A DNA stretch of 64,000 bases, taken from Podarcis liolepis. Taxonomy: Eukaryota. The stretch lies in assembly GCA_965112155.1 (NCBI GenBank), contig OZ218098.1. One strand, 5' to 3'. This document shows positions 1 through 7,187 of the stretch, one piece after another. Position 1 is the first letter of the stretch. Each line of letters begins with the position of its first letter. Under the pieces are notes generated by a model. That model saw nothing but the letters and a program-made list of their open reading frames with translations. It had not been told where the DNA came from and did no database searches. Both the position numbers and the translations under genes were made by a program.

Positions 1-239
1 GTTGGGGGGCCCTCCAGCAGAACCCGCCTCTGCATGAGCGGTAAGAATTCCTTCCACAGCATCCCCCTTCTGGAGATCCAGGACACTTGCACGTGCTGAG
101 GAAAGCCGAGGCCAGCTCCCAAGTCAGATTGCCGCGCTCTGCAAGCAGCCCAGTGCACAATACTGTGCCCCACAATCCAGACCCGGATAGTGGGAAGACC
201 TAGGGTAAAACAACAGATGTGAGTACATGAAACCAGCAT
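1..239 (-). CDS. ORF4: SGNH/GDSL-family hydrolase (partial; continues past window start)
   Basis: Manual translation gives MLVSCTHICCFTLGLPTIRVWIVGHSIVHWAACRARQSDLGAGLGFPQHVQVSWISRRGMLWKEFLPLMQRRVLLEGPP... with no stop. VWIVGHS matches SGNH block I (G-D/H-S) and RRGM matches block II. The ATG at 239-237 overlaps the YR stop codon (TAATG). Confidence 0.85.
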   Translation of the reverse strand, partial: MLVSCTHICCFTLGLPTIRVWIVGHSIVHWAACRARQSDLGAGLGFPQHVQVSWISRRGMLWKEFLPLMQRRVLLEGPP

Positions 240-1212
240 TATTTCCGCACATAACCCCTGTATGCGCCCGACTTCCAACGACCCAGGTCTTTTATCCTTT
301 TAACCGACAAGCCCCAATGGGCAGCTGTCGTTGCTGCCCCAATCCTAAAGGAATGCGGAGCAAATTCAGAGGCGGCATGGCCACAGGCAGCCACGACCTT
401 GCGCAAGACCCCGGCAAACTGATGGCGCGCCAATGGCCGCCCATCCTCATGAATGAACAGTGGCCCATTTCCTGGAGGTCGTAAAGCCATATACCTCTGG
501 AGGTCCTTAACTGGGCAAGGGCCCCCCATCCCAGTTGCTGGGAGCCGAATAACTGCTCCCCTACCCAGTTGATCAGTTTTGGAACTCCTAACATGGACCT
601 GCAGTTCTGACTGAGACAGGCTCACGTCCTGTAGCAGCAAGCCTCTAGAACCACCATCCTGTTTAGGTTCAAACACCACTTCCCCAACTCTCAGGGCCCC
701 GAAAAAGGCTAGCGAATAGGCTGCGGAAAATAGCCGAGCCTCAAACTTAGACCAACAGATGCCCTTCAATTTACCTCGCATCTCGGTCAACAAGCCAAAC
801 GTTATAGGCCTCCTTGTAGCTGGTCTGGACGGGCAAAGACGCCCCCAACCCTCCAAAGCCTTGCGTACAACGAACTTCCCACAAGGATCAGTATTGAAAT
901 AAACCTTGCTAAAGAAGGAAATTGCGGCAGAATGCAACCTCAGAGTCCTGGCTGCCCGCCGCATCTGAAATAGATGCGCCAAATATTTGAGCACTTGTGC
1001 AGTAGAATGAGGTGTGTGCATTTTCCCTACCACTGACCGCCCTGTAAAATGCAAAAAATCGGTCCAAGCCTTCTTATAGGACCGCAATGTGGAGGGGGCA
1101 ACAGATGCAGCTACTCCCTGTAAAACTAAGTGCTGCCAAGGTTCCAGAGATGATCCGGGAAAAATTCCGGACGGTCTCGAGCCACTGGCGCCAGGGACCT
1201 GAACCGCTCCAT
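239..1212 (-). CDS. ORF3: tyrosine recombinase (YR)
   Basis: Catalytic motifs ALRVGE (R), SKTDQ (K), HSFRIGAA (HxxR), GRWKS (W) and AYRGY (Y). The frame stays open upstream of the track's TTG start (1087) through SVAPSTLRSY to a TGA near 1232. The start given here is the candidate splice acceptor. Confidence 0.93.
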
Positions 1213-3018
1213 CTGAAAACGGGACAGAGCATCAGCAATCTCGTTAGATACTCCAGGAACAAAACGAGCGGAAAATACAATATTAGAACGCAAGCAATGC
1301 AAAACAAAACCCCTCAACAGTGCTGATACCCTAGGTGAACGTGAAGACTGCTTAGCAAGCACGTTCACCACTGCCAGGTTATCTGTCCAAAAACATACAC
1401 GCCGGTCCCTGAATTGCTCGACCCACAAATGGACGGCCACTACAATGGGGAAAAACTCAAGAAAGGTTAAGTCCCGAGTTATGGCTTCCCCACGCCAAGC
1501 CAGAGGCCAGCGCTCAGCACACCACCTGCCATCCCAATACAAACCGAAGCCCAATGACCCTGCGGCATCAGAGTGCACCTGAAAATCATTACACAGGTTC
1601 AAGGTGTCCTGCCAAAGTGACACGCCATTGAATTCCTCCAGGAATTTCAACCAAATACGAAGATCAGCACGCACTTGGGCTGACAGGCGCACTCTATGCC
1701 TCGGGGACCTCAATCCAGACATAAGTCTGGCCAAACGGGAACAGAAAGGCCGCCCAGGAGCGATCACCCTGCACGCAAAATTCAGGTGGCCCAGCAACGA
1801 CTGCAGTTGTCGCAGAGTGACCTTTTTTAACGGGATGAGGTCAGAAATAACACCTCTCAGCGCAAGAATCTTATCCGCCGGCAAACTGGAAGTTTGCGCC
1901 ACCGTATCCAACAAAATACCCAGGTAAGTCAGCTGCGTAGAAGGACCTTCAGTCTTCTCTGCAGCTAACGGCACACCCAGTTCCTCAGTTAAGGCCGCGA
2001 AGGCCTGCAGCAATGCCACGCAGTCTCCCGTATCGCTAGCTGAGGCCAATAAATAATCATCAAGATAATGAGTGACCCCGCCCAGGCCGGTTCTTTTGCG
2101 CAGGGCCCAATCCAGGAAGGAACTAAAACACTCGAAGGCGGCACAGGCTACTGAGCAGCCCATGGGCATGGCCTTGTCAAAATAAAATTCCCCGTCAAAC
2201 TGAAAACCCAGCAGCCAGAAATCGTCTGGATGAATCGGAAGCAGCCGAAATGCAGACTCAATGTCGCATTTGGCCAGCAGGGCACCCTGCCCGAATTTCC
2301 TTATCATTTTGATCGCTTGATCAAGCGATGCATACTTCACAGAGCAAAGCTCCGGGGGAATAACATCATTTACTGATGTGCCCCTAGGGTGAGAAAGGTT
2401 GTGAATCAGGCGAAATTCCCCCGGAGCTTTTTTAGGAACTATACCTAAGGGCGAAATATGAAAGTTGGGAAATGGGGGCTCAGCAAAGGGGCCGGCCATA
2501 CGTCGTAAAGCCAGTTCTTTCCCAATTTTCCTACGCGCGACCTCCGGCATTTCCCTCACTGACTTCTGGTTTGAAGGGTTCCTAGCTACTGGAGTTGACG
2601 CCACTGGGATTCGAAAGCCCAGAGAAAATCCATCCCGCAAATAGGACGCTGCTTCCTGAAGAGGGTATAATTGTAACCACGACAACAACGGCTGCAACTT
2701 AACTGGGGTATAAGCTAAAGAGGAAAGAACACTATTTTCCTGCTCCAGAGACTGTAGCCTGGGGGGCGGCTTTTGGGGGCTGCTGAGAGCCCCCCCCTTT
2801 CCGAAAGGGCCGACGCACCCCCGCACAAGAAGATGCCGGGTGGTTCCCTGCACACTTCTCACAGCTGTGGGAAAATCTGCAGGACTGGCGCTGACAAGTA
2901 CCCCTATTAAAATCCCAACAAAAGTACTTGCGACCCACCTTAGCCGGCACAATCTTAGGCTTCTGCAGTTCAGGGACCTTATTATCGATGCGTGGAGCCA
3001 CATAAGTAGTCCAGACAT
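1126..3018 (-). CDS. ORF2: reverse transcriptase + RNase H (DIRS/Ngaro type)
   Basis: RT motifs SPLGIVPKK, FRLIHNLS, KCDIESAF, MPMGC, HYLDD and YLGI. RNase H motifs SDAAGSLGFG, LEFFP, TDNLAVV and NEIADALSR. Overlaps gag at its 5' end and the YR frame at its 3' end. Confidence 0.95.
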   Translation of the reverse strand: MSGLLMWLHASIIRSLNCRSLRLCRLRWVASTFVGILIGVLVSASPADFPTAVRSVQGTTRHLLVRGCVGPFGKGGALSSPQKPPPRLQSLEQENSVLSSLAYTPVKLQPLLSWLQLYPLQEAASYLRDGFSLGFRIPVASTPVARNPSNQKSVREMPEVARRKIGKELALRRMAGPFAEPPFPNFHISPLGIVPKKAPGEFRLIHNLSHPRGTSVNDVIPPELCSVKYASLDQAIKMIRKFGQGALLAKCDIESAFRLLPIHPDDFWLLGFQFDGEFYFDKAMPMGCSVACAAFECFSSFLDWALRKRTGLGGVTHYLDDYLLASASDTGDCVALLQAFAALTEELGVPLAAEKTEGPSTQLTYLGILLDTVAQTSSLPADKILALRGVISDLIPLKKVTLRQLQSLLGHLNFACRVIAPGRPFCSRLARLMSGLRSPRHRVRLSAQVRADLRIWLKFLEEFNGVSLWQDTLNLCNDFQVHSDAAGSLGFGLYWDGRWCAERWPLAWRGEAITRDLTFLEFFPIVVAVHLWVEQFRDRRVCFWTDNLAVVNVLAKQSSRSPRVSALLRGFVLHCLRSNIVFSARFVPGVSNEIADALSRFQMERFRSLAPVARDRPEFFPDHLWNLGST

Positions 3019-4363
3019 CTAAATCCTTACGATCCCAGCGGGCAGTAGGGATCTTGGCAGCCCTGCGCCTGAAATTCTCATCATAAGAGATTGCAGCAGA
3101 TGCTCCCGCCATCGTAAACGCTGAACGGACTATGGACAAATAAACCCATAGGTGCATGGATCTCCGTGGGTAAGCCGCTGCCACCACGCCAGCGAACACC
3201 TGGAAACTATCCAACCATCGTTCAAAGGTCCTTTCAGCCTTTGGCAAGACCACCCTCTTTTTCGTGGCTGCCACACCCTTAACCTGCGAGTCCTGGCACT
3301 CCTGGGGGGGTGCCAAACTAAATATGTCAATGTAACGACCGTCCAGAATCCTGGACCGCAGTTTTGTATGCAAGTGGGCACCGGGAATAATGTCCCTAGC
3401 CGAATTGGTAGAAACCTTCACGTCAGGCATGAGGACCCCATCCAGGCAGTCCTGCACCGCCCCATACCTAGCCCTGTGAGAGTTTGCCCTCCGCTCCCAA
3501 GCCCATTTAGGGAGTCCAGAGGTCTCCGCAAAGCCCCAGTATAGCTTAAGTGAGGCTTCCTCGTCGCTACTGGATGTTTGGGACGAAGTACCTGTGGAAG
3601 AAGACGAAGTGTCCCTCCGTCTTCTCTTGGCGCGCCTCCTGGACTTCTTTTTCCGGCGGCGGAGCCCACCCGAAGACGACTTTGGAGGTGGTGGAAGGCT
3701 GTCCTCCACAGAGGACTCGGATGCGTCACCCTGCATCGCGACACCTGAAACTGACTGAGGCAGAGGATGAAGTGTCCCTCCGACTCCGCTTGGCCCACCT
3801 CTTGATGCTCTACTTCTCTGCTGACCTGTACCAGGAAGAGACTGAAAAGACAGAATTTGTGAATGACCAGGAACCAAACGGACAGGCGCAGAAGGCGGGA
3901 CGCCTGGCGCCTGCACTGCTCTGATCCTAGCTGACGCCCTTCTATTAGCCGTACCCCTAGCACTCCCCCGACCCCTTCGAGCAGGCACCGGCACTGCTGG
4001 TAGGTCCGGGGCCTGGGCCAAGGCGCCAGGAGAGGAATCACCGGCTGCTACAATCCCTCCCTCGTCTTCACTAGAAGAGGACACAGAAGAGGCAATGCCA
4101 GCAGGAGGAGCCGGCCCTGCGGTAGAAGTTGATGGAGTAGAACAACGATGTAACAGGCCATCCATTTCAGCCTCCAATCGGGCCAGTGCAGGAGGGTCAC
4201 CAGCCAGACCAGTGACCATGGCCTGGATGCGGCTCATCGACTGGTCTGGCCGAGGTGACCGCAGAGCCTGGGACGGACCCTTTATAGGCCTTTTTGTTTT
4301 CATAGGCTGTTTTGTTGAGGGCTCCGGCCCAGGCCTCCTTGCCGCCCTCCTCTTTGGAGCCAT
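2732..4363 (-). CDS. ORF1: gag-like nucleic-acid-binding protein
   Basis: First ATG at 4363. Low-complexity N-terminus, a basic NLS-like run (RRRKKKSRRRAKRRRR), and C-terminal CWDFNRGTCQRQSCRFSHSCEKCAGNHPASSC (a CCCH finger followed by a CCHC knuckle). Confidence 0.88.
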   Translation of the reverse strand: MAPKRRAARRPGPEPSTKQPMKTKRPIKGPSQALRSPRPDQSMSRIQAMVTGLAGDPPALARLEAEMDGLLHRCSTPSTSTAGPAPPAGIASSVSSSSEDEGGIVAAGDSSPGALAQAPDLPAVPVPARRGRGSARGTANRRASARIRAVQAPGVPPSAPVRLVPGHSQILSFQSLPGTGQQRSRASRGGPSGVGGTLHPLPQSVSGVAMQGDASESSVEDSLPPPPKSSSGGLRRRKKKSRRRAKRRRRDTSSSSTGTSSQTSSSDEEASLKLYWGFAETSGLPKWAWERRANSHRARYGAVQDCLDGVLMPDVKVSTNSARDIIPGAHLHTKLRSRILDGRYIDIFSLAPPQECQDSQVKGVAATKKRVVLPKAERTFERWLDSFQVFAGVVAAAYPRRSMHLWVYLSIVRSAFTMAGASAAISYDENFRRRAAKIPTARWDRKDLDVWTTYVAPRIDNKVPELQKPKIVPAKVGRKYFCWDFNRGTCQRQSCRFSHSCEKCAGNHPASSCAGVRRPFRKGGGSQQPPKAAPQATVSGAGK

Positions 4364-4472
4364 ACCTGCTGCCAACGGGACACAAATTCACTGTAAATGC
4401 GAGTAATCTAGCAATTAAATCACTCAGACCCAAAAATTTAAACCGCAAAGTAACCAATTACTTCCAGGCAGG

Positions 4473-4620
4473 TGCAATTCTACCGCTCGCCAGCAGGTGG
4501 CGCACCGGCAGCCTAAGCCAATTATAGGCTGCACTTGCTATCAATGGCCACTAGAGGCCAGCACACCAGTGCAGAAAGGCCAAAGAAAATGGCGCTCCCG
4601 CCAAAACGCCAAAATGGCGA
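4473..4620 (+). promoter_or_regulatory. Two CTCF-like and two YY1-like motifs in the element leader
   Basis: GCCAGCAGGTGGCGC (4489-4503) preceded by TGCAATTC; GCCACTAGAGGCCAGC (4547-4562) preceded by TGCACTTG; AAAATGGCG at 4586-4594 and 4611-4619. Confidence 0.5.
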
Positions 4621-4789
4621 CCCTCCCCGCCCCCGGTCAATAGGCCACCTACAAAGGCCTAAATTAGGCCGATTGCGAGCCAAGAAGGCCGAAACCGGGC
4701 AGCGGCGCCCGCGCAGCCCCACCAGCACGAAGCGGCCCGGTAGGCGCGCGCCAACACCGCCACCCTCGTGAGCGTGGGGGGGGGGAACG

Positions 4790-5440
4790 CGGAGGCCCTT
4801 CTGTGGGCCGGGAGGCCGCTCCGCGGCCTGTCGCCGGCCCCCCTGCCACCCCGCAATAACCCGGGGGGGGGAACACCACCCGGCCTCTCGCAAGGCCTCA
4901 GGCACCTAAAGGCCTAGCGGGCCTAGCCCGAGAGCGCGAGGCGCGAATCGGCCGCTCCCGAGGCGCCCGCGCGGCGCCTCCACCTACTCGGCCCTGCTAG
5001 GCCGCACCAGAAGCGTCGGAGCGCGCGCTAAAGGAGGCCGGCTCCTCTGGGCCTAGCGGGCCCAGCCGCCGAGAGCGCGAGGCGCGAATCGGCCACTCGC
5101 CGATGCGCCCGCGCGGCGCCTCCGCCTGCTCGGCCCAACTAGGCCACGGCAGGGAAAAAACGTGGAGGCCCTTCTGAGGGCGGGGAGGCCGCTCCGCGGC
5201 CTGTCGCCGGCTACCCTGCCGCCCCACAATACCCAGTGGGGGGGGGAGGAGCACCAGCCGGCCTCTCGCAGGCCACGGGCGCCCAGAGGCCCGGCGGGCC
5301 CAGTCGCCGAGAGCGCGAGGCGCGAATCGGCCGCTCGCCGATGCGCCCGCGCGGCGCCTCTGCCCACTCGGACCGAGTAGGCCACAGCAGGCGCGTCGGA
5401 GCGCGCGAGAAAGGAGGCCGCCGCCGACCCGGTAAGTGCC
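4790..5440. repeat. GC/CpG-rich nested tandem repeats in the retrotransposon leader
   Basis: A GAGAGCGCGAGGCGCGAATCGGCC...GCGCCCGCGCGGCGCCTC unit occurs at ~4930, ~5070 and ~5310. A GGAGGCCCTTCTG...GGAGGCCGCTCCGCGGCCTGTCGCCGGC unit occurs at ~4791 and ~5164 (period ~373 bp). Confidence 0.85.
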
Positions 5441-5889
5441 CGCTCCAAAATGGGGAAGGGAAGGAGGGAGGAAGGGACAAATACTAAGCCTAAGGTATTA
5501 AATGCGGTCCCCCGGCCCTGCGATCCCCCCGGGCCTGTTGGTTAAGGCTGAGAGTGCCAGCCGGCAATGGCCGGGGCCCACCAGACCGATCCCCCTTGCC
5601 GGCTTCAGCCGCGTGCCGGACCGTAAGCCCTGGGTCTGGTGCCCAACCCAGCCACCCCAGCGGCCCACAGGGCCCAACGCCCCGGGGGAGCTGCGTCAGG
5701 GGTCCAACTAAAATTAAAACCAAGAAAACTCAGAAAGAAGAGAAAATTAAAAGAGGGGGGGGGGAAGAATGGCAAAGAAATAGGTAAAATAAATAAAATT
5801 AAAAGGAGAGGAGATTAGGAATAGAAACGAGTTGTATACAACCAGTCCTTCGCTATGGCTCGATCCGATGCTGATCCGATGCCCACAGC

Positions 5890-5992
5890 AAAAGAGAAAG
5901 CAACACTCTGTGGGCCTTGCTTAAATATCCTCTGATCTCCACCCCCCAATTGGCAACATTCAATTTTCCCCAGCAACACCAACACCAATCTT
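5890..5992 (-). promoter_or_regulatory. Putative Pol II promoter of the retrotransposon
   Basis: Minus-strand TATTTAAG (~5920-5927), a pyrimidine-rich initiator-like CTTTCTCTTTT about 25 nt downstream, and CCAAT boxes at ~5946 and ~5985. Confidence 0.5.
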
Positions 5993-7187
5993 GACCAGTT
6001 CCTTTCCCAAGATTCTACCTGGCAACTAAAGGGTGCTTTGCCTGGCCCCAGCCGCAACACGTGCTCTCCTTTAGTGAGAACACGCTCTGTCTTCTTAAAG
6101 CTACATACGGTTCAATAGAAGAGATAAATGTTTGGCTAGCTAACACCCAGTTCATAAACACAATTACGTGGAAGGAAGCTCAATTGATTTCATTGAGCTT
6201 AGATCAGAATTCTGCTCTAGTGTATTTAATCAGGAAATCAAGTATTTAGGGCTTTTGCAATGATTGAAAATCAGTTGAGTTTCCAGGAACCTGCATTTGT
6301 GATATGAAGATTTAGCAGCATTAAAAAGAATAATAGTCTGGGTCATCTTTTTGTCAGCCATGGTGTAAAAAATAACCATTTTTTTAAAAAATAATGAGGA
6401 TAGAAATTGACTTTTAAACTATATTAATTTTGCAGGAATATTTAGAAAGGATTTACAAATACAACAAGAAATGAAAAGTTAGCATTTCCTCCACTTTGAT
6501 TGCATGTTTTTAAAAAATGAATAGAAAGGACAGAATCTCTTTTTAGATTGGGAAAAAGAGCAATTGTTTCAAAATATTTGGACCCTAGATTTAAATGTGC
6601 TTAATTCTGAGCTCAGCAGTGTGACAGCATTTTTATTCAACTATTTCAATACTAAAAAAAGAATAAGGCAAACATTAACCCTACCTCCCAAACATTACAC
6701 GAGTACCACTACTCTTTTAGTGTGGGAAGTAGAAAAGTACAGAATCATACAGATTAAAATTGGATAAAGTATTAGTAATTGATCATAAAATATTAAAGAC
6801 ACTTAAAAGTGTCAAGTGGAAAAACAAAAGTGAAAACGAAAACCCATACCCCACTCCAAGCTTAAATAGTGTACATGTGAAATACAAAAGTTGTTAAGAA
6901 AATTATTATTGACAAAGATAGAGTGGCTTAAAACAGACGTCACTTGGCAACTTCGGTAAAGATATTAAAATTTCAGGAAGCCACCTACTACTTCCTGTGT
7001 TTCAATAATAGTTCTTAGTAGCGTCCATGTCTATGAACATGGTTTAGAAAACGGCAAAACATGTAGCTCAGGAGTGATGAACCTGTTGCCTTCTAAAAGT
7101 TGGCTTGTAACTCCCATCATCTCTGAACGTTGGCAATGCAGGCTGATGGGAGTCAGAAATTTTTGAGCTATTTTTATAGCAACCGAA

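Follow-up and report, generated by a model that had tools for sequence, protein, structure and literature searches.

An intact SGNH hydrolase gene in a lizard Ngaro retrotransposon, likely expressed as a spliced Gag-esterase fusion

Described hydrolase-bearing retroelements and the layout of a lizard Ngaro

A fourth ORF coding for an SGNH hydrolase has been described after the tyrosine recombinase (YR) in the Xenopus elements DIRS-53_XT and DIRS-54_XT, its function being unproven in the accessible text (PMC9210276), and a Ngaro hydrolase ORF in the same position is likewise described, with no proven function in the available portions, in PMC6681497 and PMC7192593. Among other retroelements, the ORF1 protein (ORF1p) of the LINE ZfL2-1 combines a coiled coil, an arginine-rich motif and a basic esterase, which hydrolyses p-nitrophenyl esters and binds acidic phospholipids (PMC3905857). 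LTR elements reach an extra ORF3 or env by means of spliced messages, as with the GDSL ORF3 of the rotifer element Vesta (PMC5408684), and UAAUG stop-start coupling is used in SART1, caliciviruses and influenza B (PMC10275272). For the recombinase, a frameshift was proposed by Poulter and Butler 2015, as quoted in PMC13003380.

The stretch of DNA analyzed here (the window; 64,000 nucleotides of Podarcis liolepis, G000:C1:112530001-112594000) carries at positions 1–6088 the 5′ portion of a complete Ngaro tyrosine-recombinase retrotransposon, which reads in the order A1, gag-like ORF, RT/RH, YR and hydrolase, followed by B1-A2-B2 past the left edge of the window. The assignment to Ngaro rests on element structure: the split direct repeats are present (A copies of 218 nt, 99.5% identical; B copies of 434 nt, 100% identical), the gag, RT/RH and YR ORFs overlap, and the hydrolase follows the YR, a Ngaro-like feature. 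Its parts are:

5871–6088, minus strand: A1 split direct repeat, recognized by repeat identity, with A2, B1 and B2 past the left edge
2732–4363, minus strand: gag-like ORF1, with its ATG at 4363 and a CCCH finger at the C-terminus
1126–3018, minus strand: RT/RNase H frame, 630 aa
239–1231, minus strand: 330-aa tyrosine recombinase frame, counted from stop to stop, without a conserved early ATG
1–199, minus strand: 5′ part of the SGNH hydrolase exon, its stop lying beyond the edge at G000:C1:112529625, 190 codons past the junction

Another copy is 99.8% identical across 7.7 kb, and the family is therefore young; the closest named proteins are those of lacertid lizards. DIRS-53_XT and DIRS-54_XT share with this element the A1 / B1-A2-B2 repeats, gag, RT/RH, YR and the fourth SGNH ORF. 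A reading of the window made from its letters alone (hereinafter the sequence-only reading) had called the hydrolase frame a hidden fourth ORF; the frame is real but not new, being the Ngaro hydrolase ORF already described (PMC9210276). In the accessible text on the Xenopus elements it is a separate overlapping ORF for which neither splice nor fusion is given (PMC9210276), whereas the element here, from a reptile, pairs a defined donor with two acceptors and has predicted fusion products. Membership as a LINE ORF1, that is, in a non-LTR element with an EN/RT ORF2, was rejected, the element being a YR retrotransposon.

Several features lie in the 5′ region. The 5′ leader (window 4900–5420) contains GC-rich imperfect tandem repeats (140–380 nt), whose number varies by subfamily. 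At window 4365–4400 a pyrimidine tract and YAGYAG adjoin the gag ATG in 21/21 elements, which suggests a 5′ UTR intron; contigs from two of the sequencing runs considered below (X1 and X2) skip about 210 nt near this point, the position of the donor not being fixed. One further Ngaro copy (L051, G000:C37:4225176-4234676) sits within a 177-nt tandem array. With regard to translation of the RT (window 1126–3018), no conserved start was found, and among 26 conserved YAG sites screened none stood out as an acceptor.

A mid-gag donor and its two probable acceptors

Our main reading, to which we assign a probability of roughly 0.85, is that the hydrolase frame is the intact SGNH gene of this complete Ngaro and is likely expressed by a splice from 3592 to 199, which would yield a predicted 448-aa Gag-N/esterase, and not by way of the TAATG at the YR stop. 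Splicing at 199 was one of two routes that the sequence-only reading had put forward. The acceptor that it saw is borne out (AG at 200–201 and exon start at 199, with a pyrimidine tract and a branch-like TACTCAC), and the donor, which it did not give, we located in gag at 3592, 257 codons into that ORF:

3586–3594, minus strand: phase-1 splice donor CAG/GTACTT, last exon base 3592, identified from conservation and the contig joint
219–225, minus strand: branch-point-like TACTCAC (CT[CTG]AY 20–36 nt upstream in 56/57 copies, a short motif counted without a chance control)
200–218, minus strand: polypyrimidine tract and phase-1 3′ splice site YAG/G, at fixed spacing and joined in contigs

The YAG/G falls exactly 20 nt ahead of a conserved Trp codon in 57/57 copies, and in 56 copies the acceptor is preceded by a pyrimidine-rich, AG-free stretch together with the branch-like motif. 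At the other end of the intron, CAG/GTAC occurs in 21/21 elements of the window's clade, 17 of which give fusions of >400 aa; the donor is in phase 1 in 18/21, the remaining three having upstream frameshifts. The sister clade (20 elements fetched, 15 with gag) has G/GTA at the homologous Gly in 15/15 elements with gag, in phase 1 in 15/15. Its donors read TG/GTA, GG/GTA or CG/GTA, and where the exon-side A is lost the intron side reads GTA(C/T)GT in 12/13 cases. Across 19 elements, 4/135 four-fold sites in gag are invariant, two of them being donor −2 and +2; when sister elements are included (30 elements), 2/103 are invariant and one is donor +2, in the GT. The donor, branch, tract and acceptor of the GT-AG intron 3591–200 are conserved and their phases match.

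Four sequencing runs were mapped to the element, their status as RNA being a guess, with none on record as RNA. Among the joints listed, contigs of 2/4 runs (X2 and X5, from two organisms and two studies) have a joint from 2692 to 6090 of the L032 copy with five letters between. It corresponds to the exact removal of window 200–3591 (GT..AG), with positions 198–199 and 3590–3591 sharing the same two letters; the five letters at the joint match exon starts of other subfamilies and not that of the window. Depth of the contigs with the joint is low (4.9 and 15.1, in runs guessed to be RNA and without a DNA control), and contig depth in X1 and X2 steps at both splice sites, a measure that cannot rank the parts.

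The junction also appears in NCBI gene models, which are predictions: 12 of the 19 long database matches come from Podarcis or Zootoca and run from Gag-N into the hydrolase at precisely this point, two others join the YR to the acceptor, and five are host proteins ending in the hydrolase. YR pieces are joined to the same acceptor in P0009, P0019, P0024, P0027, P0031 and P0037 (the two long matches plus four further short ones), and P0028 uses a later gag donor. A search for intron-less Gag-esterase genome copies in the window's clade gave 0 matches to the junction pattern, and no single genome match spanned P0008 among the 101 scored of 2997 candidates. Loci L083–L085 (G000:C1:87583000-87592000 and others) were considered as processed copies and rejected, being without gag. 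These loci belong to a multicopy derivative in which Ngaro repeats and an intact hydrolase exon are retained. Their likeness to the L052 copy starts exactly at the acceptor AG, ahead of which the sequence is foreign and A-rich and has a GTAAG of its own some 75 nt upstream.

Like the LTR elements with ORF3/env, including Vesta, as presented in the accessible text (PMC5408684), this element would reach an accessory ORF at its 3′ end by a splice that skips pol. The present case differs in that the donor lies well inside gag, the product would retain half of Gag, and the integrating enzyme is likely supplied from this donor too, through a second site:

1213–1234, minus strand: proposed second phase-1 acceptor where the YR frame opens, with its exon starting at 1212, identified from invariant four-fold sites and Zootoca isoforms

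The 3592 donor likely also serves 1212, giving a predicted 581-aa Gag-N/YR. A pyrimidine tract and CAG stand at the YR opening, within the RT end, in 32/33 elements, and the YR is entered in frame and remains open for >300 aa in 28/32. Only 7/149 four-fold RT sites are invariant across 26 intact RT segments, with four consecutive ones at 1213–1234. The annotated isoforms of Zootoca LOC118082278 comprise X1, with 207 aa followed by Asp-Gly and the YR, and X2, with the same 207 aa followed by the hydrolase; models P0212, P0220 and P0228 and the Anolis P0273 also enter the YR at the predicted Asp-Gly. No 3592–1212 joint is present among the contig joints listed.

The recombinase might instead be produced by a ribosomal frameshift from the RT, with 1213–1234 representing a frameshift signal or protein constraint, a proposal that would leave the Gag-esterase splice standing and that we regard as unlikely. 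The RT and YR frames do overlap by about 105 nt, the frameshift has been put forward in review (Poulter and Butler 2015, quoted in PMC13003380), and models P0214, P0217 and P0218 join RT to YR. However, the RT frame of the overlap contains no X XXY YYZ heptamer, the invariant third positions make up a phase-1 pyrimidine tract ending in CAG, and the gene models entering the YR at the predicted Asp-Gly come from Zootoca, Podarcis and Anolis. Alternative splicing, and not reinitiation, is the likely link between the esterase and the recombinase.

Elsewhere in the RT frame, three more invariant four-fold sites at window 1369–1372 and 1440 (RNase H coding; GTG GTG, GTA) may mark cis signals.

The stop-start overlap and the hydrolase frame

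The other route of the sequence-only reading was reinitiation at the end of the recombinase, where the YR stop TAA (241–239) shares an A with an ATG at 239–237 (AAA TAA TG, minus strand):

237–241, minus strand: TAATG, in which the YR stop and an in-frame ATG overlap, lying within the proposed intron and likely incidental; in frame in 15/56 copies

The overlap is indeed present and in frame in this copy, but comparison does not support it as a coupling to the recombinase, the overlap being out of frame or absent in 41/56 copies. Of 30 loci collected by DNA similarity, 15 have the ATG that overlaps the stop in frame, and the stop-to-Trp spacing in this set is 59–63 nt; in the sister clade (30 loci fetched, of which three gag matches and one unparsed locus were left out) it is in frame in 0/26, with a spacing of 52–65 nt. 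The spacing thus ranges overall over 52–65 nt and covers all three frames, and a tree from which the spacer was left out requires four changes for the in-frame state. Because the overlap is in frame in only 15/56 copies and the spacing of the acceptor is fixed in 57/57, splicing is the likely route and not reinitiation. In 13/57 copies there is no in-frame ATG anywhere upstream of the catalytic Ser. A point against our reading is that the T-G after the YR stop is kept in 29/30 copies of the wider clade, for which we have no explanation beyond descent. The alignments indicate that the TAATG overlap is likely a lineage feature, and it looks incidental.

It is conceivable, if rather improbable, that splicing is the main route and that the window's subfamily gained a minor second one from the in-frame ATG. 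Thirteen of the 15 in-frame copies belong to the window's own subfamily group, in which 13/14 are in frame, and the overlapping ATG has an A at −3; yet the shared descent of this young group accounts for the count, and the L014 copy has lost the in-frame ATG while keeping an intact enzyme.

We consider it very improbable that the main route is one in which ribosomes finishing the recombinase reinitiate at TAATG to make a free 204-aa esterase, in the style of SART1 or the caliciviruses. An overlap that is in frame here and in nearly all of the subfamily group would allow it, and SART1 offers a retrotransposon precedent (PMC10275272). Apart from the counts in both clades and the changes on the tree, the reading is opposed by 1-nt spacer indels that flip the frame among closely related copies whose enzymes are intact (L014, L027/L029), and by the 13 codons ahead of the acceptor, for which dN/dS is 0.71 (0.32–2.38, weak evidence). 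The TURBS core motif is TGGGA, which is found within 110 nt in 3/30 copies and is absent from this one. In sum, this copy has the same pentanucleotide overlap as the UAAUG systems set out in the accessible text of PMC10275272; unlike in those, the in-frame overlap is not family-wide and a TURBS-like motif was not found in this copy. Stop readthrough from the YR into the hydrolase was rejected, frame 0 occurring in only some copies.

The hydrolase frame itself, taken from the ATG at 239–237 on the minus strand, is open in frame with VWIVGHSIVHWA and leaves the window at its left edge. Extended leftward, it reaches 204 codons from the ATG and contains SGNH blocks I, II, III and V, in the form of GHS (with His replacing the usual Asp), RRGM, LGEND and DGVH. 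The early stop or missing GxND/DxxH motifs that the sequence-only reading had named as refuting it are thus not seen past the edge. The Pfam GDSL match is weak (E 1.5e-4, below cutoff) and a phmmer search of the PDB with the single hydrolase protein gave 0 matches; a family profile run against PDB sequences has the ZfL2-1 ORF1p esterase as its best match (E 0.0066). The AlphaFold (AF2) model (pLDDT 94.3) has the five-stranded α/β fold of SGNH enzymes. In Foldseek searches with it, the named top enzyme matches listed are all SGNH/GDSL-type esterases or acyltransferases (E about 1e-7), and the ZfL2-1 ORF1p esterase (4C1B) is among the matches. The computed pI of the isolated domain is 9.6.

The frame is open for at least 180 codons in 54/57 loci with the hydrolase start; blocks I–III are kept in 54/54 open copies, and DGVH in 53/54. 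Over 19 elements (21 minus two near-duplicates), pairwise dN/dS of the hydrolase exon is 0.21 (0.16–0.27), the values for YR and RT being 0.11 and 0.08. The exon value contradicts neutral evolution and, together with the catalytic blocks, supports an SGNH hydrolase that is intact and subject to purifying selection. The hydrolase is a selected and probably active enzyme. That it is a neutral passenger or relic, to which its lower dS and higher dN/dS relative to those of RT or YR might point, is scarcely credible given an interval far under 1, the preponderance of open copies and the retained catalytic blocks.

Predicted fusion products and possible captures of esterase exons

Under the splicing model, unspliced RNA would supply full Gag and the genome, splicing 3592–199 the 448-aa Gag-N/esterase, and splicing 3592–1212, from the same donor, the 581-aa Gag-N/recombinase. 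The common N-terminus, with a helical hairpin and a basic tract, may then carry the esterase into the ribonucleoprotein of the element, where the basic esterase domain could bind or hydrolyse acyl esters at membranes and thereby act in particle movement or assembly; for both steps ZfL2-1 provides the precedent. By this analogy we infer that the esterase may be particle-associated and membrane-directed. The basic tract is encoded as follows:

3614–3661, minus strand: Arg/Lys-rich tract directly ahead of the donor

Such a tract at the junction was found in 3/37 distant homologues with a mid-length N-terminus; on the sequences compared, the junction-adjacent basic tract is a lacertid-family trait and not a general one. 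In the model of the relative P0001, a helical hairpin (residues 32–68) is followed by a long disordered linker, which carries the basic tract, and then by a folded esterase; a homodimer prediction for fusion residues 25–75 scored 0.24. The ZfL2-1 ORF1p, as described in the accessible text (PMC3905857, PDB 4C1B), has a similar order of helical N-terminal domain, linker, arginine-rich motif and C-terminal basic SGNH esterase, its helical part being a coiled coil where the P0001 model shows a hairpin. Common to both enzymes are the Ser-Asp-His triad and the oxyanion Gly/Asn, and the transposon-specific Ser228 of ZfL2-1 aligns to an invariant Ser here; however, its His191 aligns to Gln, identity is 19%, and the LINE protein is encoded by a continuous ORF, whereas that of the YR element would be a spliced product.

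Esterase domains of this type also occur in host proteins. ZNF638-like proteins of Podarcis, Zootoca and Lacerta (P0014–P0018, P0063) end in a Ngaro-type hydrolase exon that uses the same acceptor; in P0014, P0016 and P0017 the catalytic His is lost (DGVN), a shared change which suggests that the capture is old. Further long proteins (P0047, P0048, P0139, P0152, P0156, P0172 and P0085) likewise end in this esterase or repeat it: gecko genes have 4–6 copies, large fish proteins (salmon, arowana, goby and eel cod) have an esterase resembling it at the C-terminus, and an isoform of snake VGLL4 belongs here too. All are possible domestications.

The literature searched, on the element, the esterase and reinitiation, yielded no report of a Gag-esterase splice, two key reviews and the supplements (including the Xenopus ORF tables) being outside that scope. 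The Ngaro hydrolase ORF was known; what the present analysis adds is the precise joint seen in contigs, a comparison that tells against stop-start coupling, and the acceptor proposed for the recombinase. Extending these results to vertebrate Ngaro elements at large, we lean slightly towards a general scheme of one donor and several acceptors, in which the front half of Gag would be a targeting module for either recombinase or esterase and no frameshift would be needed. The Gag-esterase would then be the equivalent of the LINE ORF1p, taking YR-element particles to membranes, and host genes of lizards, snakes and fish would have captured the last, esterase-encoding exon via its strong phase-1 acceptor.

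The Ngaro hydrolase has long been listed without a function or a translation route, and the recombinase has been assumed to require a frameshift; a defined donor with two acceptors now names the actual proteins to express and assay. The comparison suggests that both LINEs and YR elements came to have the same kind of protein, a basic tract plus an esterase, a point of relevance to the role of lipids in retrotransposition.
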